From IMG/VR virus record IMGVR_UViG_2563366840_000001: DNA of 64,000 nt; one strand, 5' to 3'. The notes beneath the pieces are model-generated. The model had not been told where the DNA came from. It ran no database searches and was given only the letters and a program-made list of their open reading frames with translations. Shown in pieces: positions 2,780 through 51,794 of the stretch (positions within the stretch are counted from its first letter, which is position 1; each line of letters begins with the position of its first letter). The DNA comes from a virus. Lineage: Duplodnaviria > Heunggongvirae > Uroviricota > Caudoviricetes. A program made the translations under genes and the position numbers.

Positions 2780-4699
2780 ATGGAACAGTTCAATATCAAT
2801 AAAGGGGTGACGATCAAGCCTGGGCTTGACGTGCTTCCCCCGCCAGTGACTGATGATGAATATCGCGCATTAATGGCCGGTGAGGACCGCTATCTGATGA
2901 CGGAATCCAACACCCTGGAGGAAATCGAGGCTACGTTCTTCTATGACACGCCGATCCACTGGTGTGCTACGGATTTACTGGAGGCGATTAGTTCTACTCG
3001 TTTGCAGTTACACCGGACCATGCAGGCATTTGTCCGGGCATTAAACCAGAAGCTGAATGGTACCGGAATCTCTGCGGGGAGTGATAAAACGGGGGATGTG
3101 GCCCAGAACGGTGCACGCGCGATCGGCGGGGCTGAAATTGGCCGGGCACGTAACGTTAACGGGCTGCCGGTCCTGCCAGCCATTATTCCGCTCAGTGATG
3201 GTCAGACTATCAGCATTCTGTTTCATAGCCCGACAGCGGAAAACCGGATCACCAATAGCGATACGCTGATTGCTTTCCAGTTCTTACTGAATAAAAAAGA
3301 CGTTACTCATACCGTTGCTCCGATGAGTGGACGTGATATGACGCTGGCGCAGGTCACCATGAAACTTGCCAACCTTGCAGAGAAAAACTCGGCAAAATTC
3401 CAGCGTGCGCAGAAGAAGAAAAAAGCCCTGGTTGATGAAATAACCCAACTACAGGCTGACAGTGACCAGAAAGAGGATGCCATGAGCGACCTCGCGGATC
3501 AGGTGGCAGCGGTAGAAGGGCAGAAGGTAGATCTGGAGCAGAAAATTAACGCTGTTGCATCGGAAGCGGATTCTCTTTATGAAGAGAATGAGCGTTTGCA
3601 GACGGAGATTGATCAGCTCAATCGAACTGGTGGGCGCGAAACCATTGCTCCTGCGGGGATGACTGGTGGACACTCTCGCGCGATGACGGATCGCCTTGCA
3701 AGTATCAAAAATCGTATGCATATGAACGGGGAAGTGACGCTCAGTAATGGTGCATCAATGAAGCAATTCATTGAGGACGGTGAAGGGTATATCCAGTTAA
3801 CCGATTCGGATGGCAGCGTGTACATGATCAAGGCTAAATCCATACAGGGTGTGGACATGGCAGATGCGATCGGCAAGCTGTTTAAAGCCTATAAAGCGGG
3901 TAATGTATCGGAATACCTGGTCCAACCAGAAGAACATAAACCGGAAAACGTCGAACCTGAACCAGCGGAGGATACCGGTAGCTCTTCGCCTGAACCAGAA
4001 GTCTCTGTAGGTGCATATCGATATGCCCTGCAAATGCGTCCGGCGGCCCCTGGCGCAATACCTGAAGGTAACAAAGCAATTCTGCCGCGCCCTGATGAAG
4101 GTGACCCGTATTATGAATATGCACGCTACGGCATTGCTACTTACGATACCCCGCTTTCTGATCAGCAAATGAGTGAGTACGACCTGAAGTTATTGCCTCG
4201 CGAGGATTCTTTCGACTTCTTGGCGAAGACACTTACTAATGGTCCGTTTGGCAAATATGCACAAAAAGCTCTGGAGCTGGCCACCAGCTCACCAGACGAG
4301 TTCCGCGTAATGCTGAAAACTCAGTTTCAAAAAACTTTCCCCAATATTGCGTATCCGGGGGGCGCTGGCACCGAAAAAATGGTGCAGAGCATGATCAATG
4401 CATTGCAGGCCGAAGTCGGTGAGATTACTCAGCCAGAACCTGCCCCGGCACAGCCTGATGAAACGGTTAGCGAAGCAGATGCAGAGGCTAATAAAGCCAT
4501 TGAATATCTCAATAACGTGATGGATATGCAAAGCACTGACATGGCGGAGATCCGTAACGCCCGGGGCAATGTCCGGGAAGCGATTGCAGCCCTTCAGGCT
4601 GCCGGGCGTTTTGAGGAAAACGAAGAGCTGGTTAATGGCGCTGCTCGCCACCTGGCTGATCTGCTGGTAGCAATCCAGAAAGCGGGGGTAGCGGCATGA
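2780..4699 (+). CDS. darA: DarA antirestriction capsid protein
   Basis: 639 aa, size and operon context as in P1 DarA; coiled-coil central region. Confidence 0.85.
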   Translation: MEQFNINKGVTIKPGLDVLPPPVTDDEYRALMAGEDRYLMTESNTLEEIEATFFYDTPIHWCATDLLEAISSTRLQLHRTMQAFVRALNQKLNGTGISAGSDKTGDVAQNGARAIGGAEIGRARNVNGLPVLPAIIPLSDGQTISILFHSPTAENRITNSDTLIAFQFLLNKKDVTHTVAPMSGRDMTLAQVTMKLANLAEKNSAKFQRAQKKKKALVDEITQLQADSDQKEDAMSDLADQVAAVEGQKVDLEQKINAVASEADSLYEENERLQTEIDQLNRTGGRETIAPAGMTGGHSRAMTDRLASIKNRMHMNGEVTLSNGASMKQFIEDGEGYIQLTDSDGSVYMIKAKSIQGVDMADAIGKLFKAYKAGNVSEYLVQPEEHKPENVEPEPAEDTGSSSPEPEVSVGAYRYALQMRPAAPGAIPEGNKAILPRPDEGDPYYEYARYGIATYDTPLSDQQMSEYDLKLLPREDSFDFLAKTLTNGPFGKYAQKALELATSSPDEFRVMLKTQFQKTFPNIAYPGGAGTEKMVQSMINALQAEVGEITQPEPAPAQPDETVSEADAEANKAIEYLNNVMDMQSTDMAEIRNARGNVREAIAALQAAGRFEENEELVNGAARHLADLLVAIQKAGVAA

Positions 4700-5061
4700 C
4701 ACTATCAGCTATTGAGTTAATGGATCTCAGCGATAAGTTGGATGCTCTGATGTCCAAAGCGGCTACCGCGAGTGGCATGGAGTTGCTGGATATCAGCGAT
4801 GAAATCGACCAGATCATGCAACAGATGGGGTACGGCGCGTCCGGCGGTGGTAGTGGCGAGGAAAAACAACCTTCGGAACATGATGGTGTGCCAAAACTGG
4901 TTGCTGATTTCCTGGCTGATAAATTCGTCGATCAGAGCACCGATGCATTTATCGGTACCTTGCAGGATTTGAGTCAATATGTTGGCACATACATCGACCT
5001 GGACCAGGTTAAACAGCACACGGCGGCATGGATAGCCGCCAACATTAAAGAGGCAGCATAA
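4696..5061 (+). CDS. ddrA: DdrA (Dar operon)
   Basis: 121-aa ORF overlapping the darA stop (ATGA coupling). Confidence 0.7.
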   Translation: MTLSAIELMDLSDKLDALMSKAATASGMELLDISDEIDQIMQQMGYGASGGGSGEEKQPSEHDGVPKLVADFLADKFVDQSTDAFIGTLQDLSQYVGTYIDLDQVKQHTAAWIAANIKEAA

Positions 5062-5073
5062 GGCGTAACAGGG

Positions 5074-8061
5074 ATGAGCTTAAGCGATCAGGTGGTAATG
5101 GCCACCAGCATAGAAACGCTGATCGAGCTGCTAAAGAACTTGCCCGATTATGGGCGGGTTTCGTATGTGGTGACAGCGAAGGGAGACGAGGTAAAAACAG
5201 CGTTTGATATCGTCGATGCCTCAGCTCTTTTGGTATCCAATACTCTGGATGGGAAAATTAATCCTGACTATCCCCAGGAACTTCAACCGCGCGACCGGAC
5301 CCGCGCATCCAGCCTTCTTCAGGTTAACCAGATATCCAAGGATTTGCGGCCTGCTCAGCTTACCGATTCCGGTCTATCCAGCCATGGCGCGCCGATAATT
5401 GGTGAGGACAATGCCGTTGAGTCAGGTAATGGACGGACCATGGGGATCATTAAAGCCTATCAGGACGGCAATGCGGATCGGTATCGTGAGTACCTGATTG
5501 ATCATGCGACCGAATTCGGCATACGACCTGAAAAGGTTGAATCAATGACGGCTCCGGTACTGGTGCGCCGCCGGTTAACTAAGGTTGACCGCGTTCAGTT
5601 TGCCAAGGACTCAAATATTTCTGATCTTCAGGAAATGGCAGCCAGTGAAAAGGCTTTTGTTGATGCCGACAGCATAACACCGGCGATGATGGCGCTTTTT
5701 AACCCGTCAGAAAGCGGAGATCTGCTTAGCCGCAGTAATGACACGTTTATTCGCGGATTTATGACGCAAGTTGGTGCCACACAGGCGGCTGGCCTTGTAA
5801 CTGAAGATGGGCGACCAACACGGCAACTTGTAGACCGTATACAAAACGCGATCTTTGCCAAGGCATATAAGGATGCGCGCCTGGTAAGGATGGTTGCAGA
5901 AGAACCTGATCCGGATATGCGTAATGTTCTGACGGCGCTTAATGCGGCAGCCAATGATTTTGTCCAGATGCAGGCTTTGTCAGGAGAAGCGCACAAGCAG
6001 GCTGTGACAACTATTGTTGATGGCATTGAGACAGCGGATAGCCTCGATAAAAAGGCGCTGGCGGCATTGAAAGATGCGGTAGACCTGGTAAGGCAATCGA
6101 AGGAGTCAGGCCAGCATATTACCGATGTTATTGCTCAGGGGGATATGTTCAGCGAAACGGCCCCGGAAGTGAAAGCACTCGCGTTGTTCATCGTCGCGAA
6201 TAACCGTAGCGCGAAGCGTATGGCCACCGCCTTTAAGTTGATGGCGCAACGTATCAATGATGAGTTACAGCACCAGGGCCAGGCGCTCGGGGATATGTTT
6301 GGCGGCGGCGATGTGTCGTTACAGGATATCCTTCGCCAGGTGTCTCAGGAACTGGAAAACGAAGGCATGCAAGGGATATCCGGCGGTCTTTTCGAGTCCG
6401 TTTCCGGCGGTAGTTACAACGGTGTTGCTCCATATACCAGCTTGCTATTACATCGGGCATCCGGCATCAAAGACATTATTCATCTGATCAGGCTGCTATC
6501 CCGCACCGATCCCCAGGATGAGCAGCTTGTACAAGTGCTTGCGCATTTTGTCCGAATGCCTGTTGCCGACGTAAAAAAATGGTGCCGATTATTCGGTATC
6601 AGCAATTCGTTACTTCGCGGATTGTTAAATCACGCATCCTCCCTTGGGCGCGACGGCTTTGATGAGATAGCGCAGGCGATAAAAAACGGAGATATGCCAC
6701 CAGCTATTGACTGGTTTTCCATTCGCCCAACCAGGGTGAAAGCATTCCTTAGCGCGGCGCATTCGGCATCACCATTGGCAGAAATGGTTCAGAGGTTGTC
6801 GCTCATATTCACAGACCATACCGCGTTGGGTGATCTGACTCTGGACGAGATGAAAGAAGCCTCCATTCAGTGGGCCGATCAACAAAATGAGGTTAACTCT
6901 GACTTCTTGCCAGCATTCAGGAAGGCCGTTAGTAAAGTGGATGATGCCCGTGGAATTCTGAAGGCATTTAAGGCATTGCAAAGTCGGGTTAATAAACATG
7001 TCGGTGATATCGATGGGGTAACGGCGGAAGGCAGGGATATCCTTAAAGAGCACGGCATAACGCCAGAGTTTATTGATGAGATCAGGACGGATATGCAGCG
7101 TGAGGTCGTATCGTCCCTGCAAATCGTAGCCAGAGCGTTGGCGGATGCTAATCCGAAGAGTGCGGCCATTGTTAACCGGGTTATTGGTGATATTGAAGCA
7201 TCGGAGGGCATGGGGGCGCTGAAACTCTTCCTTTCGCGAGCGTTTAATCCTAACGGCAATATTCTCCCCGGCATTATTTGTGAGGCTAAAAAGTATGTCA
7301 GCGAAGAAGAACTTGAGCATCTTGACCAACTACTTAAGCGATTCTCATATAACCCGCAGACACGCTGGCAAATGAATCAGCGAAGTATGGGTTCGGTCCA
7401 CGAGAAAGTGTTATCTGCCATGAACAGTGCGATCGCCAACTCATCCGTATCTGAAGAAAAAGCTCTTGAGTGGGCCGACTCTTTTATCACGGAAGAAGTG
7501 GAAGAAGCCCGCGCTGGACAGAATGGTGGGATAGACCTGCGCAAGGAACTTGCTGATATTTATCGCCTGACCGGCGGTAAAATTTCGACCTTATCAAAGG
7601 TGGTTCACCACCAGGGAAGGGCATATGCAAATCTAAATGGTGTTGTTGCTGTCAATTTGAACGATGAAAATGCAAGTGCACTGTGGCACGAGCTGGGTCA
7701 TCATCTTGAGTACAGTAACCCTGGTTTGTTAGAGAAAGCCCGGTCATTCCTGAAGGCCAATGTTGAAGGGGATAAGCCATCTTTCGTTAATATCGGTGGG
7801 CGTGGCAAGCCTGAATGGTGCTTCAGATCTCGATTGAGTAATATTTATATGGCGAAGGTATACCCGCCAGCCTCAGTAAGTAACACCGGGAAAATTCGGC
7901 AGAAATCACCGACTATTTCCAAAACGTCAGCAACGGAAGTATTCTCTATGGCTCTTCAGTTGTATCATGACAAAGAGGCCGCTGCCGCATCACTGATGAA
8001 TGGTGACGGATTGCTGGAACTGTTATTAGGTGTGGCAAAGGAGCTAAATAATGCAGATTAA
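5074..8061 (+). CDS. ddrB: DdrB, large Dar-operon capsid-associated protein
   Basis: 995-aa ORF following ddrA. Confidence 0.8.
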   Translation: MSLSDQVVMATSIETLIELLKNLPDYGRVSYVVTAKGDEVKTAFDIVDASALLVSNTLDGKINPDYPQELQPRDRTRASSLLQVNQISKDLRPAQLTDSGLSSHGAPIIGEDNAVESGNGRTMGIIKAYQDGNADRYREYLIDHATEFGIRPEKVESMTAPVLVRRRLTKVDRVQFAKDSNISDLQEMAASEKAFVDADSITPAMMALFNPSESGDLLSRSNDTFIRGFMTQVGATQAAGLVTEDGRPTRQLVDRIQNAIFAKAYKDARLVRMVAEEPDPDMRNVLTALNAAANDFVQMQALSGEAHKQAVTTIVDGIETADSLDKKALAALKDAVDLVRQSKESGQHITDVIAQGDMFSETAPEVKALALFIVANNRSAKRMATAFKLMAQRINDELQHQGQALGDMFGGGDVSLQDILRQVSQELENEGMQGISGGLFESVSGGSYNGVAPYTSLLLHRASGIKDIIHLIRLLSRTDPQDEQLVQVLAHFVRMPVADVKKWCRLFGISNSLLRGLLNHASSLGRDGFDEIAQAIKNGDMPPAIDWFSIRPTRVKAFLSAAHSASPLAEMVQRLSLIFTDHTALGDLTLDEMKEASIQWADQQNEVNSDFLPAFRKAVSKVDDARGILKAFKALQSRVNKHVGDIDGVTAEGRDILKEHGITPEFIDEIRTDMQREVVSSLQIVARALADANPKSAAIVNRVIGDIEASEGMGALKLFLSRAFNPNGNILPGIICEAKKYVSEEELEHLDQLLKRFSYNPQTRWQMNQRSMGSVHEKVLSAMNSAIANSSVSEEKALEWADSFITEEVEEARAGQNGGIDLRKELADIYRLTGGKISTLSKVVHHQGRAYANLNGVVAVNLNDENASALWHELGHHLEYSNPGLLEKARSFLKANVEGDKPSFVNIGGRGKPEWCFRSRLSNIYMAKVYPPASVSNTGKIRQKSPTISKTSATEVFSMALQLYHDKEAAAASLMNGDGLLELLLGVAKELNNAD

Positions 8062-14369: not shown

Positions 14370-17300
14370 ATGAACAAGCTATCTATGGGTGTGTTTCGCT
14401 GTTCAAGTGTCAGCGAAATATTGAAATACATTAGGGCAATAACATCTCACCGAGCGCCGATTAAATACGGCGTGGAAAAGGTGGAAGGCAAAAGCTATGA
14501 CCGACTGCGCCGGGAGGCGAATCAGAAGGCGATAGATTTGCTTAATTCGCTGGTGGACGGCGCGACACTGACAGATGAACAGCGCCAGATCCTGGCCGGG
14601 TACACTGGTGAAGGCGGCATTGGCGGGTCCGTCTCCGAATATTACACACCAAAGCCTATCGCTGAAGGTGTCTGGGAGATCATGAAGCTCTACGGCGCGG
14701 ACGTAGGTAACACTCTGGAACCATCGGCGGGAACCGGCGTTTTTAATGAGACAAAACCGGTTGGTACGGTGATGACCGCGACTGAGATCAGCAGTGTTTC
14801 CGGTCGTATAAACCAGTTGTTACACCCGGAAGACAGCGTACAGATTTCCCCGTTCGAACAGCTGGCTATAAACACGCCTAACGATTCATTCGACCATGTT
14901 GTGGGTAACGTTCCGTTCGGCGGTCGTGATAACACACGCAACATCGATAAGCCTTACGCAGAAGAAACGGACATGGGGTCTTACTTCATGCTCCGCATGC
15001 TGGACAAGATAAAACCTGGCGGATTCATGTGTGTGATTGTGCCGCCGTCCATTGTTTCAGGTTCAAACATGAAGCGGTTACGCCTGCGCTTATCCCGTAA
15101 AGCTGAATTTCTTGGCGCTCACCGCTTGCCTACCGGTACTTTTGACGCAAACGGGACCAGTACAGTCGTTGATGTGGTGCTGATGCGCAAACATCCGGCA
15201 GAGATGGCTGAGAAAATCCCCCTGGTGGATGAAAGCACTCTTGAATCGGCAAATGTGCTTTGGCCAACGTTTATTTCTGGCAAGTGGTTTGAAAAGGACG
15301 GTCGCCGGTTTGTTCATGGCACCCAGGAAAAGGGCTTCCAGGGGCGTATTGAGGTTCGTGCCGACGGTCAGATTGATAACCAGGCTCTTAAAGCGAAGCT
15401 GATTCATCGTTTCGAAAGCCGTATCGACTGGTCTTTGCTCGATATGGCTGAACCGTCACCGACCGCAGACGTTGTTGGTGAAGGGGAAATGCGCCTGATT
15501 AATGGCGTATGGCAAAAATATGCTGGTGGTCGCTGGATTGAAGCTGATGCCGGGAAGGAACTTAAGATCGATGCTGCCAGTTATGGCGCGGATAGCTGGG
15601 AGGCTCTTCAGCGTAACCTGACTACAACAGAAGGCCGTCTCGGCATGACATTTACCCAGATGGCAAATGTCCGCGATAAGTACACCACATCAATCAGCGA
15701 CGATATGGTGCAGCTGGTGGACTGGATTAACAGCCAGCCTGAAAAATACCGTGAACGCTTGTATCGCGGGGCGATGATTGGCCGGATGTTAATTGAATAT
15801 CAGGACATGAAGGCCGCCGGGCATAGTGCTGAACAAATCGAACAGCAGCGCCTTTCTCTGGTATCCCGTTTGCAGGCAGAGATTGACCGTTTTGGTAACC
15901 CCGGTCGCGGTCCGATAGCGAAATTGTCGGGGAGCGGTGCGCGCGCCTGGTTTGCTTTCCGTGGTGCGATTAAGCTGGATGGCACTATTTCTGACGAGCT
16001 GACAGGAAAGCTGGTTACGCATGATTCCAGCGCCAGTTATGACTCCACCAGCTATCAGGACACCCTGCGTTATCTCTATAGCGATCTTACCCGCGATCCA
16101 ATCCAGCTCGATGATTTCCGCCTTGCGTTTACCGGCGAACTGCCAGCCAGTGATGAAGAGTTGCTTAATTTATTGGCCAGCACCCCTGGTATTGCGGTTT
16201 CACCGTATGGCGGGATTGTTCCGTTCGCCCGCGCCACCAGCGGCGACATTAACGAGATAGTGGCTCCAAAACAGGAATTTCTTGCCACACTCCCCGACGG
16301 TCCAGTAAAGAACAACGTCCTTAATCAGCTGGCAGCGATCGAAGAGAAGCGCATCAAGACGCCAGCAGAGAATATCCGCTTTAAGCTCAATAGCCGTTGG
16401 TTCGACCGCTCCGTCATTCTGGAATTTTTGCAGGAAAACGGCTATCCGGATCTGCGCTATGTGCAGTCAGTGCAGCTGGAAGGCGACGAAATGGTTTCTG
16501 ACACCTATCACGGTGGTGATGGTCTGTTCGTCGGGCACCGATACGGTGTCGTCCAGCGCAAGGATAAAGAAACAGGCGAGATCCGCTACGAGTGGGACCG
16601 TAAATCAGGTGAAAACGCGACCGGGTTCCCGGCACAGCTGGAAAAGTATCTCAATGGTGCGCGTATCGGTGGCAAAGATAGCGCGACGGCGAACGGCTAC
16701 CGCGAGCAGATGGCACTGCTTGAGGACCAGTTCAATAAGTGGATCAAGACGCACGATCGCTACGATGAACTGGTTGCCAAATACAACGATGTGTTCAATA
16801 GCAATATCCCGTATGAACACTCTGGCGATCCGCTTGGGTTGAAGGGATTAAGCGGTAAGCGCCAGCCATTTGATTACCAGAATAGCGAAGTGCGCCGACT
16901 GTCCGAAGATGGGCGCGGCATCCTGGGCTTCGGCACCGGGCTGGGTAAAACTACGACCGCGCTGGTGCTTGAGGCGTTCAACTATGAGAACGGTCGCTCC
17001 ACCCGTACTGCGTATGTAGTGCCTAAATCAGTGCTGGAAAACTGGTATTACGAAGCAAAAGAATTCCTGAGTGAAGAGGCATTCAGTAACTACCTGTTCG
17101 TCGGTCTTGATGTGCTGATGGATGGCGATCAGATTCGCCAGGTGCCGGTGCTCGATGAGAACGGTAAACCTGTTCTTGGTACTGATGGCACTCCAGTTAT
17201 GCGCGATGCCCTAAAACTGGCAGATGAAGCCACTATCACGGCGCGGATGAACGCGATCCCGCACTCAAATTACCGTGCAGTCGTGTTTACCAAAGAACAA

Positions 17301-20300
17301 TACGCCCGCATTCCGCTACGTGATGACACCGTAGATGAGCATGCACAGGATATGCTTTATGACTTCGTTGCCGCCGGGCGCGTAGCCAGCGCAATGGACT
17401 CCGACTCCCACCGCAAAGAGGCCGCGCGTCGCCGGGTATTGTCGGAGTATTCAGATACCGGCACCGAAAAAGCAGAGAAGTATCCGTACTTTGAGGATAT
17501 GGGCTTCGATAGTGTGATCGCTGACGAAGGTCACAACTACCGCAATAGCTATAAAAATGGTCGCGAAGCGTCACAACTGGCCTATCTGCCCACCAGCGCG
17601 GTGGCGCAATCGGCGCGGGATATGGCAATTAAAAACGCGTACCTGATGAAAAAGAATGGTGGGCGCGGACCGGTTCTCCTGACTGCAACGCCAGTCGTTA
17701 ACACCCCGATCGATGCATACAACATGCTTTCTCATGTGCTGCCGAAGGAATACTGGCAGAAGATGGGGATCTACGGTCCTGATGACTTCGTTAAATTCTT
17801 CGGCAAGACCAGGCTGGAAACGGTACAGAAAATCAGCGGTGAAGTTGAAGAAAAAATGGCGCTGGTGGGCTTTGAAAACCTTGATGCGCTGCGCGGCATA
17901 TTCCATCGCTGGACAACGCTTAAAACGGCGGAAGACGTTAAGGATACCGTGGAGATCCCGGAACTGGACGAACACCAGCAGGATGCACCACTTACGGAAG
18001 AACAACTGGCGGCGTATGAAGAATTGCGTCAGCAGGCGGAAGCGGCAGCCAAAGCCAACAATGGCGTAACGACCTCGGTCAATGAAGACGGCGTGATTGA
18101 GCACGAGAAAGCCCGTCCGATCTTCTCAATAATCAGGGATATGGACCGCGTATGTACTGACATGGACCTGTACTATCGCAGGATCACCTATCGTTTCCTG
18201 CCGGAGTACGCCGATGCGGTGCAGCAGCTGGCGGACAGTTTGCCTAAACAAGCCACCAGCGAAGACGACGACAGTGATGATTCGATCACGCAGCAATCGC
18301 AATACTCCCTGATAGATAAGGGCGAGTTTATTCAGTTGCAGGTACCGGAAGCATTTGAGCAGGAAGTGAATAAGCGCCTGGCCAGGTTTGGCATTGACGA
18401 ACAGACCGTAACTCACCCCGTTACGCCCAAATACGCGAAGCTGATTGCCACGCTGAAGGAGTTTTTCCCGGAAGGTAAGCAAATCATCTTCACCGATGAA
18501 AAAACGCAACACCAGAAGCTCAAGCGCATTATCTGCAATGCTCTTAACCTTGAACCTTCAAAGGTGGGGATCCTGAATGCTCAGACGGTTGCCGAGGCAG
18601 GTAAAACCGGTAAGAAACTGAAAGCGGTTAAACCACCGAAAGAGCTACCGGATGAACCAACAGATGCACAGATAGCGAAATACAACGAGCAAATGGCTCT
18701 GTATGACGCCTATATCGCGCAGCAAAATGAAATGTCGCTGGGTGGGCTGGAAAAGATTGCTGCCGACTTCCAGGAGGGCCGGACTCCGATCATCATCTGC
18801 AACAAAAAGGCAGAGGTGGGTATCAACCTGCATCGAGGAACGACTGACATCCATCATCTGACGTTGCCATGGACACCAGCCAGTATCGCACAGCGTAACG
18901 GTCGCGGTGCCCGAGTTGGTTCCAACCGTGCAAGCGTTCGCGTTCACTACTACTGCGGCAAGGGTTCTTTCGATGAATACCGACTGAAGACGCTGAAGCG
19001 TAAAGCAGGCTGGATCTCCGATATCCTCCGCTCAGATAAGTCTGAAATGGAGAACGCCGACGCCAACGATATGATCGAAATGCAGATGTATACCGCTAAG
19101 GATGATGGCGAACGTCTGGCAATGATGCAGGTTCAAATGGATAAGGCGAAAGCCGCGCAACGCGCTCGCCAGAAAGAACAGGCTACTATCGACCTTCAGA
19201 ACTACATCAAGGCGCAGCACGCAGCTGGCGAGGATGTGGAGGTACTTACCGCTGAATTAGAGCGAAGCAAAGCGGAACTTGAAAAGACCACCGCCGAGGT
19301 AGCTAAATTCAAACAGGCGGTAATGGCCAAAGCAGCTGATAACGCAGACTGGAAGGCCCGCTGGGGGAGCGTCCATCACACAGACCGTATGTTGTTAGCA
19401 CAGTATCGCGCGTCGTTGAAAAACGCCATTCAGCGCAAGGCTAATATCTCTCAAGCCATCTCCCGCTATGAGAAATTATTGAACCGTACTCAGAAGGCCG
19501 CGACGGATATCAAACGCCTGCGCCCGCTGGTGGAGGATGCAATAAATAAAGGCATTCTGGATGTTGATCCTGACCTGGTTAACCATGCGAGTGAGTTCCT
19601 TGTTATCGGCGATCGCTCATGGCGTGTAGGCCAATACTACGATTGTGCCGGTGATATCGTTCGCATTAAGTCGCTGGACTTCGACAGCCAGCGCGCAGAC
19701 GTGGAGATCATCTTTACCTTCAAAGGCACCAAATCGGGTAACTGGGATGTGAAGACGCTGGATAAACAGGTGGATGTAACTCCCGATGAAGATGCTGTTA
19801 TGCAGAAAATCAGTGGTGGCGTCTCCATCGCCGGGATTAACGACATCATTTCCTGTGACGATTTCTACCGTTTCCAGCAGCGCGGCATGATCAAAATAAC
19901 TGACTCGTACGGCGTTCAGACTACAGAGTCAGGCTATAGCATTGATTTTGTTGGTACCTATACGGACCCACTGAAGCATGCGGTTTACCCGGATCGCCGT
20001 GACGGCGCGCTGAAGTCGTCAATTGCAAAATGGGTGCTTGGTATGATGTCGGAAGGGAATAACCGCCAGATCCGTTCGGCAGAAACATTCCTGGTTGAAT
20101 TGTTTGGCTCCAATTATGGCGATGTAATCGCGTCATACGGAGATACGCTATCCCCTGAAGCAATTCAGGAGAAAATAGCGGATGCGATCGCCAGAATGCC
20201 GGAAAAAACAAGCCAGGGGGCTACTCGTAACGGGGATTCTGAACTTGAAGTCACCAATGCCATTTTCGGTACCAATGAGTTCCGGGGGTCAGATTATGAG

Positions 20301-21137
20301 ATCACCACAGCACAGTTTGGCACCATTGGCATTTACAGCAATAAAGCCGAGATCAAGCAGGCAATGGACGCAGCAAGCGCGCGCATCGCAGCAGAACGGG
20401 AAGCCAATCTGAATCATGCAGTCGCCGCGCTGACTCAATCGTGGGTAACAGCAATCAGGGAGGCCGCCACCACAGGGAAAATCACACCTGCAATAGCGGA
20501 TGTCGTAAACGACGGCTCTAAATTTATGGATGCCTATCAAATGGATGCGGTGAAGTTGCCATCAGCCTATGGTCAACTCAGCTATCGCATGACCTACAAC
20601 CTGGTATCAATGTTTTCCGACCTTGCCATCCTTGGGCTGGTGGATCTTAACGAGGTTACGCCGGAATTGCTCAGCATGCGCAAGAATCATGTGGAGATAT
20701 TGCAGAGAATTAACACGGTTCTTGCCGGGCGCACCGATGAAGAGAAACAGGCCGACGCTGATCGGATAAACCTAGCCCTTGGCAACATCACGGAGGAAGA
20801 GATTGCCGCCAGAAACGAGAAACAAGAAGAGTTATCATCAATACAGGGTGATGCCACCAGCATAGCTCAGTCTCTTGGTCTGAATTATCGCGTATCCACC
20901 GCCGACCTGAAGATGATGTACGCACCAAAATTCGCCGCTGGCGAGGTATTTGGGCTTCAGGAAGCCTCAGGCATGAAAGGCGTTCTTTTCCGTGCGAAAG
21001 ACGCAATCAAGGCGAAATTCGGCGCTCGCTGGCTGCCAGCGAAGGCGAAGAACAGCGATTTCCCGGGTAACTGGTGGATTATCGAGACAAAACACAACGT
21101 GGCGGACGTTCTGGCCGTCATCCAACAATACGCATAA
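14370..21137 (+). CDS. darB: DarB antirestriction protein (N6-adenine methyltransferase plus helicase domains)
   Basis: 2255 aa; methyltransferase-like motif HVVGNVPFGG, helicase Walker A GFGTGLGKTT and DEGH box; size identical to P1 DarB. Confidence 0.9.
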   Translation: MNKLSMGVFRCSSVSEILKYIRAITSHRAPIKYGVEKVEGKSYDRLRREANQKAIDLLNSLVDGATLTDEQRQILAGYTGEGGIGGSVSEYYTPKPIAEGVWEIMKLYGADVGNTLEPSAGTGVFNETKPVGTVMTATEISSVSGRINQLLHPEDSVQISPFEQLAINTPNDSFDHVVGNVPFGGRDNTRNIDKPYAEETDMGSYFMLRMLDKIKPGGFMCVIVPPSIVSGSNMKRLRLRLSRKAEFLGAHRLPTGTFDANGTSTVVDVVLMRKHPAEMAEKIPLVDESTLESANVLWPTFISGKWFEKDGRRFVHGTQEKGFQGRIEVRADGQIDNQALKAKLIHRFESRIDWSLLDMAEPSPTADVVGEGEMRLINGVWQKYAGGRWIEADAGKELKIDAASYGADSWEALQRNLTTTEGRLGMTFTQMANVRDKYTTSISDDMVQLVDWINSQPEKYRERLYRGAMIGRMLIEYQDMKAAGHSAEQIEQQRLSLVSRLQAEIDRFGNPGRGPIAKLSGSGARAWFAFRGAIKLDGTISDELTGKLVTHDSSASYDSTSYQDTLRYLYSDLTRDPIQLDDFRLAFTGELPASDEELLNLLASTPGIAVSPYGGIVPFARATSGDINEIVAPKQEFLATLPDGPVKNNVLNQLAAIEEKRIKTPAENIRFKLNSRWFDRSVILEFLQENGYPDLRYVQSVQLEGDEMVSDTYHGGDGLFVGHRYGVVQRKDKETGEIRYEWDRKSGENATGFPAQLEKYLNGARIGGKDSATANGYREQMALLEDQFNKWIKTHDRYDELVAKYNDVFNSNIPYEHSGDPLGLKGLSGKRQPFDYQNSEVRRLSEDGRGILGFGTGLGKTTTALVLEAFNYENGRSTRTAYVVPKSVLENWYYEAKEFLSEEAFSNYLFVGLDVLMDGDQIRQVPVLDENGKPVLGTDGTPVMRDALKLADEATITARMNAIPHSNYRAVVFTKEQYARIPLRDDTVDEHAQDMLYDFVAAGRVASAMDSDSHRKEAARRRVLSEYSDTGTEKAEKYPYFEDMGFDSVIADEGHNYRNSYKNGREASQLAYLPTSAVAQSARDMAIKNAYLMKKNGGRGPVLLTATPVVNTPIDAYNMLSHVLPKEYWQKMGIYGPDDFVKFFGKTRLETVQKISGEVEEKMALVGFENLDALRGIFHRWTTLKTAEDVKDTVEIPELDEHQQDAPLTEEQLAAYEELRQQAEAAAKANNGVTTSVNEDGVIEHEKARPIFSIIRDMDRVCTDMDLYYRRITYRFLPEYADAVQQLADSLPKQATSEDDDSDDSITQQSQYSLIDKGEFIQLQVPEAFEQEVNKRLARFGIDEQTVTHPVTPKYAKLIATLKEFFPEGKQIIFTDEKTQHQKLKRIICNALNLEPSKVGILNAQTVAEAGKTGKKLKAVKPPKELPDEPTDAQIAKYNEQMALYDAYIAQQNEMSLGGLEKIAADFQEGRTPIIICNKKAEVGINLHRGTTDIHHLTLPWTPASIAQRNGRGARVGSNRASVRVHYYCGKGSFDEYRLKTLKRKAGWISDILRSDKSEMENADANDMIEMQMYTAKDDGERLAMMQVQMDKAKAAQRARQKEQATIDLQNYIKAQHAAGEDVEVLTAELERSKAELEKTTAEVAKFKQAVMAKAADNADWKARWGSVHHTDRMLLAQYRASLKNAIQRKANISQAISRYEKLLNRTQKAATDIKRLRPLVEDAINKGILDVDPDLVNHASEFLVIGDRSWRVGQYYDCAGDIVRIKSLDFDSQRADVEIIFTFKGTKSGNWDVKTLDKQVDVTPDEDAVMQKISGGVSIAGINDIISCDDFYRFQQRGMIKITDSYGVQTTESGYSIDFVGTYTDPLKHAVYPDRRDGALKSSIAKWVLGMMSEGNNRQIRSAETFLVELFGSNYGDVIASYGDTLSPEAIQEKIADAIARMPEKTSQGATRNGDSELEVTNAIFGTNEFRGSDYEITTAQFGTIGIYSNKAEIKQAMDAASARIAAEREANLNHAVAALTQSWVTAIREAATTGKITPAIADVVNDGSKFMDAYQMDAVKLPSAYGQLSYRMTYNLVSMFSDLAILGLVDLNEVTPELLSMRKNHVEILQRINTVLAGRTDEEKQADADRINLALGNITEEEIAARNEKQEELSSIQGDATSIAQSLGLNYRVSTADLKMMYAPKFAAGEVFGLQEASGMKGVLFRAKDAIKAKFGARWLPAKAKNSDFPGNWWIIETKHNVADVLAVIQQYA

Positions 21138-33346: not shown

Positions 33347-33520
33347 AATGGCAGCCTCCTTTGACTAAGTTAAGGAGCTACCGCGTGAGGTTCCAATCTC
33401 AATGGCGGTAGCACTGACTGGGTTGGAACTACCGGCGTCAAAGGGAACCGGCCTGCCTTTCGGCAGCCCAGCCAGCACTACCATTGATCTCTGAGCTAAA
33501 CGCTACGTATGGCCGTGCGA

Positions 33521-33685
33521 TGGCATGACACAAAAAAAGACGCTTTTGGCGTCTGTGTCGCCTTTGACATTATCCGGGGTTCCAATCCCGGCACCCGTTT
33601 TAATGAGGTGCCTGATAAGCATAAACCGAAAATGCCTCAAGGCGCAAGAGGTCAGGTTCAATGTAACATCGGTAGCTAAAAAACA
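33521..33685 (-). ncRNA. Candidate small structured RNA (c4-like antisense regulator) upstream of icd-like/ant-like genes
   Basis: C1 operator-bearing promoter region, hairpin-rich sequence with a GGTTCCAATC motif repeated in the downstream leader, ends in AGACGC-tttt-GGCGTCT stem plus U-run on the minus strand. Confidence 0.3.
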
Positions 33686-47692: not shown

Positions 47693-47709
47693 ATTGCTCT
47701 AATAAAAAA
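47693..47709 (+). promoter_or_regulatory. C1 operator
   Basis: ATTGCTCTAATAAAAAA, 14/17. Confidence 0.6.
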
Positions 47710-47740
47710 CGTGATGAGTGTACATCACGTTTTAAAAATA

Positions 47741-47757
47741 TGGAATTATTAGAGCAA
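47741..47757 (-). promoter_or_regulatory. C1 operator (inverted partner)
   Basis: GGAATTATTAGAGCAAT, 14/17; with the site at 47693 flanks the palindrome ACGTGATGagtgtaCATCACGT. Confidence 0.6.
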
Positions 47758-48116
47758 TATTATTCTGATTCTTGCTCAAAAAACGAGCTAATAAGGGGAA
47801 GCCAATCCTCTGACACTTCGCGAGGTCGCGGTTTGCCGTGGAAAAAGATTATTCGGCAGTCTTTTGGTAATGCCCCATTCCCCCTGGAGTAACGCGCGCT
47901 CGCATATTTCGAACCAGGTTCCACAACATCGGCCTTGTAACTTACAAACCATCCCGGATACAGATCCTGAAATGCTGGTGTATCATCACCCATAACCTTC
48001 CGCAAAAACCCCTGATCACCCCAGCATTCAGTAGTAACACAACGAGCAACCCAACCTTCCGGATCTTGCCAGAATGAACCGCCCCGGGTTTCCTGGAGAG
48101 TGTTTTATCTGTGAAC

Positions 48117-49007
48117 TCAGGCTGCCAGATCATCGTTTCCGATGGAAGCATAATAAGCTTTTTCTGCTTCTGCCGGAGGAGTATGGCCCAGCCTTTCCAG
48201 CAATCGTCGATTGTTATACCAGTCCACCCACGTGAGTGTGGCCAGTTCCACTTCTGCACGGTTTTTCCAGCTCTTACGGTGTATTACCTCCGCTTTGTAA
48301 AGACCATTGATGCTCTCCGCCATCGCGTTGTCATACGAGTCGCCTGTACTTCCTGTTGATGCCAGTAATCCGGCTTCCTTAAGCCGCTGTGTGTAGGCCA
48401 GCGATACATACTGAGAACCTTTATCACTGTGATGGACCGTGCCGGACGGTCGACGGGCCCATAACGCCTGCTCCAGTGCATCCAGCACGAATGTCGTTTC
48501 CATGGACGATGAGACCCGCCACCCCACGATGTATCCGGCAAACACATCAATGATGAACGCCACATAGACGAAGCCCCGCCATGTGCTGACGTAAGTAAAA
48601 TCAGCCACCCACAGCTGGTCAGGTCGTTCTGCCACGAACTGACGGTTTACGCGGTCGCCTGCGGCAACGGCTTTCCGGCTGATGGTCGTACGGACCTTTT
48701 TACCCCGGAGAACACCGGCAAGTCCCATAACCGCCATGAGACGTGCCACAGTGCATCTGGCCACTCTGATACCTTCCCGTAACAACTGACGCCAGACTTT
48801 ACGCACACCGTATACCTTGTGATTTTCATCGTATACGCGCTGTATCTCTTTCTTCAGCCAGTCATCGCGCTGCGCACGGGCACTGCGTTTATCCGGATGA
48901 TGTCGCTGTTGCTGACAGTGGTAATACGTTGACGGGGCAATATGCAGTTCGCTGCATAGCGGTCCGACCCCGTACTGCTCACGCAGCTTATCCAGCAGTG
49001 GCATCAT
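48117..49007 (-). CDS. IS3-family transposase OrfB (DDE catalytic domain), expressed by -1 frameshift from OrfA
   Basis: DDE integrase core; frame overlaps the orfA end at the A6 slippery sequence. Confidence 0.9.
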
Positions 49008-49330
49008 TTTTTCCAGAGGCGGTCGAACTCCGCCTTCGCAAAATAAGCGGAAGCCTGGCGAAGGATATCGTTACTGCGGCGCAGTTCACGATTTTCACGT
49101 TCCAGCTCTTTCAGACGCTGACGTTCAGCGGTGGTGAGCCCTCCATCACCGCCCCCGGTATCCCGCTCATGCTGGCGAACCCAGACACGCAGAGTCTCCG
49201 GCGTACAGCCAATCTTTGGAGCAATGGAACAAATTGTCGCCCATTGTGAGTCATATTCGCTCTGACTTTCCAGAACCATACGGACTGCCCGTTGACGGAC
49301 TTCGGGGGAAAAACGAGTATTTTTAGTCAT
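49004..49330 (-). CDS. IS3-family transposase OrfA
   Basis: 108 aa with HTH and leucine zipper; ends WKK at an AAAAAA run. Confidence 0.9.
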
Positions 49331-49770
49331 CCTGTTTACCTCTTTCTCAGGAAGTTTAGTCTCCAGGATTCCCGGGGCGGTTCAGAATGCACTCCAGATA
49401 TGCGCTTTTACACTATTTGGTATCCACAGGGCACCGCTACCACGATATTGTGGATGGTAAAAATCCCTAAGCATGGTGAAGCTGGTTGGTGGATTCTCAA
49501 GGATTGGGCGTATATCACCGGCAATAACCGTGTCCAAATCCAGATAGAACAGATCATCGGTTATATCCGGTCGGAACAACTCGATTTTCGCCCACCAGCC
49601 ACGGCACTTTTGCCACTGGTTGATCAATGGGATAACTTTGACGCCAGGTACATGTAAACGCTTCAGGTCTGTCAGGCAAATAATTTCATAGCCTTTTGGC
49701 AGTTGATTAACCAGCCACTGCACATCGGAAGCGTTATAGTCACCACCAGAGCGAAGAACTAAAGCAATCT

Positions 49771-50463
49771 TCATGCTGCACCATCACCTTTCACTTTCAT
49801 CAATGTCAGGTTTCCGCAAAATACGGCACCAGTATCGATATAATGCTGATTCCAGAATGTCTTCGGGCTTTTCACCAGAGTGTGACCAAAGATAAAACGA
49901 TCTGCGCCCGAAATTTCGCCACCAATATCATCCATCGAATCACTGATACGCTCGCGCGCCCAGACAACGTTGAAAAGCGGCACCTCCTTACCGAATTGAT
50001 ATTCATTATCCGGATAGTCGGCATGGGCTATAACGATAGTTTCTTGCCCGGTGTTCAACTCAATGATATAGGGCAGTCGTCTTACCAACTCCACCAGCGC
50101 CCTGGCTAATATTTCCTGATCAGCGTCCAGCATGAAGAACCATTGACCGCCATTCATTAGCCAGTTATTCACGTTGCCATCAGGACTTAACGCATCAATC
50201 ATCAGCCGCTCATGGTTGCCCATAACCGCTCTGAACCATGGCATCTGCAATAGCTCCAGGCATTTAACATTTTCGGTGCCGCGATCGATAAGGTCGCCGA
50301 CCGATATCAGTAAATCCTGCGCAGGGTCAAAATCCACACGATGGAGTTCGGACATCAGTCTGGTGTAGCAACCATGCAGATCACCAACAACCCAGATATT
50401 CCTGTATTTGGTACCGTCGATACGGTGATAAATTGTGGGTGCCATCATGTATTCTTCAGCCAT
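49771..50463 (-). CDS. Ser/Thr protein phosphatase, calcineurin-like metallophosphatase
   Basis: Motifs GDLHG, GDLIDRG, GNHE. Confidence 0.85.
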
Positions 50464-51071
50464 TCTTTAAGAGTCATCTGCGGAATACCTCCCATTTTCC
50501 CGCATGAAACAACGTCAATCTGTTCACGCGCAGACTGGAATAACAAAGGCAGGTGACTTAGATTTTTTGGCGTGCCGCCGGAGTGAACGCGTGGTTCTTG
50601 CGTAGCGTCAACGCCCACCAGGGCTACATGTTTGAATCCGATATGGAAAGCCAGGTTCAGAGCACCATATGCACTATTGCCACTGGCAATTTCATTCTCA
50701 TCTTCACAAAGGCCGAAATGTGCGGACCAGCGCCACGCCCACCACTCGGGAGAATTCGTATTTTTTGGCTCGATGCCGCGTTCAGCCACACGACGGAAGC
50801 ACAGAACGCCGTCTCTGACTTCACGTTCTTTAACATCGGGTAGTGCCATGCAATAACAAACACCACGGCGACGGCGGCCACGACCAACGCGCCGCATATT
50901 GTCTGGGGATGGATCAAGGGTGAAAAAATAAGAAGCGCGGTTAAGCCAGTCGATAGCCCCATTGACCGCTATAATCGGCACTCCGCGCGGCGCAACAAAG
51001 TTTGCGGCGCTTGGGCCACTGCCGACGATAATAACGCGATCACTGCCTCTAAATTTATTCTTGGGAAACAT
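50445..51071 (-). CDS. MptE-like (DUF115) protein, paralog 2
   Basis: N-terminal VIIVGSGPS...IIAVNGA Rossmann-like motif; overlaps the upstream paralog by about 100 bp. Confidence 0.6.
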
Positions 51072-51631
51072 TGAATTGCACTGCTCCTACTTGCATTCAA
51101 AATATGTAAATCTGCGTGTTTTTTGCGGGTATCCAAGAACTGCTGTTGCCATTTTGAAATAGACACCTGCGTTGGATTCCGTAGGGCTTGAGGGTGCGCA
51201 CCATGCCAATGAAGGCCGTTTTGCAGAGAACAGTCATAGCCGACTAATACCACTACTTCAGCCCCTGATTCAGCAGCCAGACTGATAGCCTGCGCGCCGC
51301 TATTTACCCCTTCCGCCGGTCCACAATATCGCCTGTACTCCAACGAAAATGATTTCGCCGCCGCCAGGTTGGCTGTCACTTTGCGGAATCTCCCTCCCGG
51401 TATGGTGGAGCCGTATTGCTTCCACCATGACAAATCACCGGCGTATAAGGCATAAATGTCATCGAACATCTGCCAGGAATTGTTAACCGCGATGATTGAA
51501 CAGCCAGTTTTTTCTATAGCAGCACAGTCCTCACGAGTGAGTGACGGACCGCTACCGACACAAAAAACAGTCCTAGTCGCCCTGGGTGGTATGTTCATTC
51601 TCAGCTGCAAATTCAGCCTCCAGGCGAGCAT
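50969..51631 (-). CDS. MptE-like (DUF115) protein, paralog 1
   Basis: N-terminal VFCVGSGPS...IIAVNNS motif. Confidence 0.6.
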   Translation of the reverse strand: MLAWRLNLQLRMNIPPRATRTVFCVGSGPSLTREDCAAIEKTGCSIIAVNNSWQMFDDIYALYAGDLSWWKQYGSTIPGGRFRKVTANLAAAKSFSLEYRRYCGPAEGVNSGAQAISLAAESGAEVVVLVGYDCSLQNGLHWHGAHPQALRNPTQVSISKWQQQFLDTRKKHADLHILNASRSSAIQCFPRINLEAVIALLSSAVAQAPQTLLRRAECRL

Positions 51632-51794
51632 TCATTTCAGCGATTACAGGGTCCACTACAGCATCTGTTTCCTGTTCATTACGCGGCATGATCGATGCCA
51701 GCGATTCATAATTAGCCTTGGATGACACGATTATTCTCCCGATGTTAATGTGCGCTATATCAAATGGCGCATATGCGCTAATTAATTTATTATT

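Follow-up and report, generated by a model that had tools for sequence, protein, structure and literature searches.

The window analysed here is the whole 64,000-nucleotide stretch of virus record IMGVR_UViG_2563366840_000001 (Caudoviricetes). On its minus strand, between positions 47760 and 49774, it carries a gene that is interrupted by an insertion sequence (IS). The gene corresponds to pmgQ of phage P1, and the element belongs to the IS629/IS1203/IS3411 group of the IS3 family. An initial annotation, made from the sequence itself, had proposed that a 1310-bp IS629-like element flanked by GAA direct repeats had recently split a single gene, and that it had inactivated a gene co-transcribed with a phosphatase gene and MptE-like genes. 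The features of the interrupted locus are as follows.

47760..48074, minus strand: C-terminal pmgQ remnant, codons 131-233 plus stop, preceded by the second copy of a duplicated Phe codon; rejoins in frame and holds S174, K176, H208, G209 and P211
48072..48074: target-site duplication, copy 1 (GAA); single GAA in uninterrupted loci
48075..48099: terminal inverted repeat, orfB-distal end (TGAACCGCCCCGGGTTTCCTGGAGA), 23/25 complementary to the other end
48117..49007, minus strand: IS orfB, 296 aa, with HTH_21 and the rve integrase core (open reading frame (ORF) list, profile searches)
48933..49049, minus strand: ALIL pseudoknot (Rfam RF01497) spanning the A6 frameshift site; 120.2 bits against a gathering score of 50, full model 1-117
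49004..49330, minus strand: IS orfA, 108 aa, with HTH_Tnp_1 (ORF list, profile searches)
49360..49384: terminal inverted repeat, orfA-proximal end; end motif only at the two IS ends
49385..49387: target-site duplication, copy 2 (GAA), in the sequence flanking the IS
49385..49774, minus strand: N-terminal pmgQ remnant, codons 1-130, holding the invariant D79-L80-D81; identical to ELF05057.1 of E. coli KTE119

The element spans positions 48075-49384 on the minus strand, exactly 1310 bp, and its transposase genes are oriented like pmgQ. Its ends (TGAACCGCCCCGGG... and ...CCCGGGGCGGTTCA) have TG...CA termini, and 23 of the 25 outermost bases at one end are inverted-complementary to those at the other. 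A 14-mer end motif occurs exactly twice in the window, in inverted orientation and only at the IS ends, compared with 0 occurrences expected by chance. The orfB gene lies in the -1 frame relative to orfA, and the two genes share an ATGA overlap directly after a run of six A residues (A6). OrfB matched the NCBIfam model transpos_IS3 with 314.6 bits (cut-off 160). Residues D136, D195 and E231 were read from its sequence, the second D and the E being separated by 35 residues, and based on established knowledge of the IS3 family we take them to be the DD(35)E triad. Equivalent IS copies in RefSeq have a 404-aa OrfAB product that is annotated with a programmed frameshift.

Full-length copies with 100% identity to the element were found on many E. 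coli chromosomes and plasmids, and the IS query had matches in 4264 of 5426 complete E. coli genomes. OrfA and OrfB are 98% and 97% identical, respectively, at the amino acid level to a copy annotated as IS629, and the IS DNA is 96.3% identical to a copy on plasmid pO111_2 that is labelled IS1203 in RefSeq. By these sequence features, the element is a complete IS3-family IS of the IS629/IS1203/IS3411 group, and the call stops at the group level rather than at a particular isoform. The proposed family, length and inverted repeats were borne out by the matches to HTH_Tnp_1, HTH_21, rve, transpos_IS3 and ALIL, and by the identical E. coli copies. The element is like IS629, IS1203 and IS3411 of E. 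coli and Shigella in its 1310 bp, TG...CA repeats, orfA/orfB -1 frameshift, ALIL pseudoknot, 3-bp duplication and preference for prophage DNA, and no structural difference from this group was seen in the window. IS629 yields target duplications of 3-4 bp, and 62% of the IS629 copies in O157 genomes are located in prophages (PMC3271280). All parts of the present element are intact, and many other copies share its exact sequence; it may be competent for transposition.

Read on the plus strand, the sequence across the insertion is ...CTTGCCAGAA|TGAACCGCCCCGGGTTTCC...(1310 bp)...GGATTCCCGGGGCGGTTCA|GAATGCACTCC..., with GAA on both flanks of the IS (48072-48074 and 49385-49387). The empty site in P1 and in six other uninterrupted loci reads CCAGAATG(A/C)ACTCC and contains one GAA in 7/7 loci. 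These seven loci differ from the window by one single-nucleotide polymorphism adjoining the insertion site. The reading frame alone would be no proof of a 3-bp duplication, because excision of the IS without an extra GAA also leaves an open frame. The duplication is proven because the seven empty-site loci have a single GAA, and the flanking repeats of the initial annotation are thereby confirmed.

In silico excision of the IS together with one GAA yielded 702 nt on the minus strand with a single frame of 233 aa, in agreement with the earlier proposal that one gene of "about 230 aa" had been split. Excision of the IS together with 1, 2, 4 or 5 extra bases broke the frame, while excision of the IS alone left it open with one extra Phe codon. 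The two halves had originally been described as ORFs of 130 and 81 aa. They do rejoin. The called 130-aa ORF (49382-49774, minus strand) terminates at a TGA contributed by the IS end. The 81-aa ORF, in contrast, is only the TTG-initiated tail of a 103-codon C-terminal remnant (47760-48074), which has no evident start codon, the TTG being internal.

The rejoined 702 nt align in one piece and at the same length to pmgQ of phage P1 (P1_gp091) with 97.4% nucleotide identity. Identity to hdmD of P7 is 97.0%, and other Punavirus genomes also align in one piece. Among complete E. coli records, the rejoined gene was contiguous and near-full-length in 595 of 675 matching records, almost all of them plasmids, at 95-99% identity. 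The search returned 685 matching places in these 675 records, so that at most about 10 records can have pmgQ in two separate places. The 702 nt also aligned to 588 PLSDB plasmids, and the nearest intact DNA allele in the complete E. coli records differs at 5/702 positions. At the protein level, PHROG 1962 ("glycosyltransferase") was matched end to end (E = 3.5e-127), and the exact 233-aa rejoined sequence exists as an intact protein on 53 contigs (one accession EES5037404.1). A homologue search found 137 proteins, nearly all of them single proteins of 190-240 aa with more than 90% query cover. The largest cluster of intact alleles has 2479 members, with lengths of 230-233 aa in 13 of the 15 members listed.

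P1 pmgQ and P7 hdmD have the same neighbours as the gene in the window, with ppp upstream and the pmgR promoter with its C1 operators downstream. By sequence and position, the interrupted gene is the pmgQ/hdmD orthologue of a P1-like phage-plasmid. The P1 gene is intact and annotated as "putative morphogenetic function" or "glycosyltransferase", whereas the window copy is interrupted. The uninterrupted gene that was expected in related phage-plasmids was found in P1, P7 and the 595 E. coli records, where it does not consist of two separate genes.

Scaffold KB732924.1 of assembly GCA_000351905.1, from a P1-like phage-plasmid of E. coli KTE119, shares a 2.2-kb stretch of 100% identity with the window. 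Its length of 141 kb is well beyond the usual 90-100 kb or so of the P1-like plasmids seen, perhaps owing to additional cargo or to a join made in scaffolding. Three further sources contain the pmgQ-to-IS junction: contig ERZ919709 from a human-gut metagenome, contig 3300045988 from a JGI metagenome, and sequencing run SRR640119. Both metagenome contigs match the window at 100% identity over 2 kb of flanking sequence. Because the same allele occurs in an isolate, two metagenome contigs and one sequencing run, it is, to judge by these records, an established circulating lineage and not a one-off event. Among complete RefSeq E. coli genomes and PLSDB plasmids, none had the same insertion site, and the 5-7 records that cover the whole query have the IS elsewhere. 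A young age of the insertion is supported by the undiverged IS copy, the perfect duplication, the absence of secondary lesions and the identity of the rejoined protein to an extant intact allele. The term "recent" in the initial annotation holds in this respect, and has to be qualified by the presence of an established lineage in several samples.

Conserved residues of PmgQ were mapped in alignments of 55-56 homologues. D79, L80 and D81 in the N-terminal part and S174, K176, H208, G209 and P211 in the C-terminal part are invariant, and G148-D149-Q150 is nearly so. The break at residue 130/131 places the DLD motif (79-81) and the conserved C-terminal residues on different fragments. Inactivation of pmgQ by the insertion is well supported because the break has invariant residues on either side, and we strongly infer it from the sequence.

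The structure was modelled on an intact homologue (P0001) that is 97% identical to rejoined PmgQ. The AlphaFold (AF2) model is a single compact domain with a mean predicted local distance difference test (pLDDT) value of 95.1 and a predicted template modelling (pTM) score of 0.91. The top Foldseek matches in the PDB were AgtA (6mw5), glycogenin, LgtC (1g9r), WbbM and GlyE, which are retaining GT-A enzymes of GT8 type (probability 1.00, E about 1e-8 to 1e-7, TM 0.5-0.6, sequence identity 11-17%). PmgQ is probably a sugar-transferring, GT8-like GT-A glycosyltransferase. Like the GT8 enzymes glycogenin, LgtC, AgtA and GlyE, it has the predicted fold, a conserved DxD motif and an invariant C-terminal His. 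It differs from them in being only 11-17% identical and in having no match to the Pfam family Glyco_transf_8. Because no Pfam or NCBIfam model matches PmgQ, the model is best called a "GT8-like fold", rather than taken to make PmgQ a demonstrated GT8 member. GT8 enzymes bind Mn2+ and the nucleotide sugar through the DxD motif and a distal His; by analogy, D79/D81 and H208 of PmgQ may be metal ligands. A search of the literature on the function of pmgQ, hdmD, pmgO and pmgP returned only essentiality tables and expression lists, and no PmgQ biochemistry was found there.

We read the locus, with a probability of about 95%, as the product of a single simple transposition of an intact IS629/IS1203-group element into pmgQ of a P1-like phage-plasmid, resulting in a null allele and a tolerated, near-neutral lesion. 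IS3-family elements transpose by copy-out/paste-in. Transposition of the 1310-bp element in this manner would have occurred once, into codon 130/131 of pmgQ in an E. coli P1-like phage-plasmid matching that of KTE119, and would have duplicated the 3-bp target GAA. The break separates the DxD motif (D79-L-D81) from G148-D-Q, S174, K176 and H208, so that neither fragment would be expected to form the active site and the gene would be null. Most likely, the insertion would then have been tolerated as a near-neutral change that persists in a circulating plasmid lineage. As an insertion of an IS3-family element into a known phage-plasmid gene that is non-essential, such an event is a textbook case, of an ordinary and already known kind.

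In principle, pmgQ could be restored by excision of the element promoted by an IS-excision enhancer (IEE). IEE-mediated excision of an IS629-group element from lacZ in Shiga-toxin-producing E. coli O121:H19 (PMC9397093) is comparable, in that a simple IS insertion with its duplication intact likewise silences a gene there. The inactivation in that case is reversible; pmgQ itself is not known to have a phenotype.

The consequences of the insertion depend on the surroundings of pmgQ, in which the following features were identified.

47695..47758, minus strand: region 3' of the pmgQ stop, with two inverted C1-operator-like sites (47693-47709 and 47742-47758, counterparts of P1 OpmgRb and OpmgRa) around a hairpin (47706-47733), then a T run
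49771..50463, minus strand: ppp, lambda-type Ser/Thr phosphatase (Metallophos), its stop overlapping the pmgQ start (ATGA)
50445..51071, minus strand: pmgP homologue, PHROG 2111, with a sub-threshold Pfam MptE-like match
50969..51631, minus strand: pmgO homologue, PHROG 4603 ("alpha-2,3-sialyltransferase"), with a sub-threshold Pfam MptE-like match
51792..51820, minus strand: promoter-like site (GCGACA-17-TAAAAT) at the position of P1 PpmgN, presumed start of a pmgN-pmgO-pmgP-ppp-pmgQ unit (pattern and P1 annotation)

The neighbours match P1 gene for gene, with pap, pmgS and pmgR downstream and ppp, pmgP, pmgO, pmgN and pmgM upstream, and the original guess of a phage-plasmid was correct. The ppp gene overlaps pmgP, and the pmgP and pmgO ORFs as called overlap by 103 nt. 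Pfam MptE-like matches were indeed obtained for the pmgP and pmgO homologues, but at 20.9 and 23.4 bits they fall below the gathering score of 34.6 bits, so that the label "MptE-like" for these neighbours can be kept only with this reservation. Some RefSeq records name a neighbouring gene in the block, probably the pmgP or pmgO homologue, "motility associated factor glycosyltransferase". The products of pmgP, pmgO and pmgQ together amount to three putative glycosyltransferases, which are encoded in one unit with a Ser/Thr phosphatase.

The pmgQ gene is likely co-transcribed as the last gene of a C1-controlled pmgN-pmgO-pmgP-ppp-pmgQ unit. An operator-like sequence adjoining the promoter-like site resembles P1 Oppp. 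Downstream, the hairpin after pmgQ has a folding energy of -24.6 kcal/mol (z = -9.6), and region 47695-47758 likely marks where the pmgQ unit ends and a separate pmgR-pmgS unit starts. The claim that the insertion inactivates a co-transcribed gene draws support from the invariant residues on both sides of the break, from the ATGA overlap with ppp and from the pmgN-pmgQ layout of P1; for the co-transcription part, we go no further than to infer it. Polar effects of the insertion should be small, because no further gene of the unit follows pmgQ, and pmgR-pmgS, which lies downstream, keeps its own promoter and operators. In P1, knock-down of pmgQ by CRISPR interference gave an efficiency of plating of 1.4 (PMC10695390), and the same table lists pmgQ as non-essential, citing Gonzales et al. 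2022. The lesion is expected to be tolerated because pmgQ is reported to be non-essential in P1. The position of pmgQ at the end of its unit, the separate promoter and operators of pmgR-pmgS and the dispensability of pmgQ for P1 plaques are the reasons why we consider the lesion near-neutral.

Some details of the control regions were noted in passing. The operator-like site upstream of pmgN (P1 Oppp; window 51745-51790) reads TATGCGCTAATTAATTT here and CATGCACTAATTAATTT in P1. Divergence is unusually high in the preceding 30 bp, given the 97-99% identity of the rest of the region, and these 30 bp form a short palindrome (TGGCGCATATGCGCTA). Base pairing is possible between the two C1-operator-like sites that follow pmgQ, with an 11-bp hairpin enclosed between them. 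A consensus terminator scan missed the hairpin, probably since its stem extends into the A and T runs. Over 47695-47758, one base differs from P1, outside the hairpin and both operator sites.

Other lesions were found in pmgQ and in genes nearby. Plasmid pO111_2 (E. coli O111:H- 11128, NC_013370) carries IS1203 in pmgQ (3961-5270 of the locus compared) with a GTC target-site duplication, and the gene rejoins in silico to an intact 233-aa frame. This case resembles that of the window in the gene, the P1-like plasmid, the kind of 1310-bp IS and the 3-bp duplication. It nevertheless represents an independent event, as the site is 189 bp nearer the 5' end of pmgQ, the duplication is GTC and not GAA, and the IS differs at 49/1310 positions. 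In other P1-like plasmids, independently inserted IS629-group copies lie in the pmgN-pmgO gap (pUTAK-13-1), inside ppp (pF1200-2), inside pmgS (p812A1-65K) and downstream of pmgS (pUMNF18_103). The homologues P0009, P0023, P0024 and P0031 include at least three distinct frameshifted pmgQ alleles with the same out-of-frame tail (...ICIQDGL), one of which represents 71 member sequences and another 16, and a 128-aa product that ends in another foreign junction after residue 84. The pmgN-pmgS block appears, from these sequences, to be dispensable and lesion-tolerant, with no clear excess of lesions in pmgQ itself. The orientation that all neighbouring IS copies found share with the one in the window was considered as an orientation bias and rejected, since the search joins only same-strand pieces and insertions in the opposite orientation could not have scored full coverage.

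Several points weigh against the reading of a single transposition that left a null and near-neutral allele. The metagenome contigs end inside the IS, and both junctions are present on one molecule only in the draft scaffold that matches KTE119. The insertion site is in no complete RefSeq or PLSDB record, the record that matches is a 141-kb draft scaffold, and E. coli carries IS629 in multiple copies, all of which would fit an error of assembly or scaffolding that collapsed a repeat into the wrong gap of a draft genome. We nevertheless consider an error of this kind very improbable, since misassembly would not create a perfect 3-bp duplication at both junctions of a sequence that is single-copy in empty sites, and independent assemblies of three other datasets contain the pmgQ-to-IS junction. 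With respect to function, Pfam and NCBIfam scans of rejoined PmgQ returned no family at E <= 0.01, Glyco_transf_8 included, and its sole direct sequence match to a solved structure is weak (6mw5, E = 0.086). Its glycosyltransferase activity is a prediction. Loss of this activity and co-transcription at the locus were deduced from the sequence, and neutrality is presumed on the basis of laboratory P1 data rather than of the KTE119-type plasmid.

The listing of two ORFs by ORF callers could also mean that these are naturally separate genes and that their in-frame rejoining is a coincidence. This view is refuted by the end-to-end match to PHROG 1962, the identical intact protein on 53 contigs, the single contiguous gene in 595 E. 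coli records and the fact that nearly all of the 137 homologues are single proteins with more than 90% coverage. More weight is due to the idea that the insertion is real but selected, with loss of PmgQ benefiting the plasmid or its host and thereby explaining repeated inactivation. The independent IS1203 insertion in pO111_2, the frameshifted alleles (one with 71 members), the further foreign junction and the persistence of the window allele across several samples are consistent with such selection. Nevertheless, we regard it as unlikely, because IS629-group insertions are spread over the whole non-essential block and not concentrated in pmgQ, because intact alleles dominate (the 2479-member cluster and the 595 near-full-length records), and because the pattern fits relaxed constraint on a dispensable gene.

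Simple transposition into a dispensable pmgQ is therefore the reading that we retain, and it has practical consequences. Both ORFs should be annotated as one pseudogene (pmgQ::IS629-group) and not as two hypothetical proteins. The unique junction offers a marker by which the lineage of this P1-like plasmid can be followed in gut metagenomes and in isolates. The added value is modest and consists in PmgQ, so far a "putative morphogenetic function", modelling confidently as a GT8-like glycosyltransferase that is repeatedly lost in nature. The natural mutants make the dispensability and the substrate of PmgQ experimentally approachable.

The P1 receptor is the core of the lipopolysaccharide (LPS). 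As a more speculative and, in our view, unlikely extension, pmgO and pmgP, whose products are MptE/Maf-like, might together with pmgQ and the phosphatase gene ppp form a lytic-cycle glycosylation module of P1-like phages that targets the LPS core or virion proteins, and the recurrent pmgQ knock-outs might reflect selection on that activity. If so, the KTE119-type plasmid would be a ready-made natural mutant for finding the target.

The 64-kb window as a whole yielded no tRNA genes. At 14370-21137, its plus strand holds a 2255-aa ORF that may be P1 darB, as its size suggests. On the minus strand, Rfam matches to a C4 antisense RNA (77 bits) and an isrK-type RNA (63 bits) lie side by side at 33401-33611, which fits the P1 immI region.

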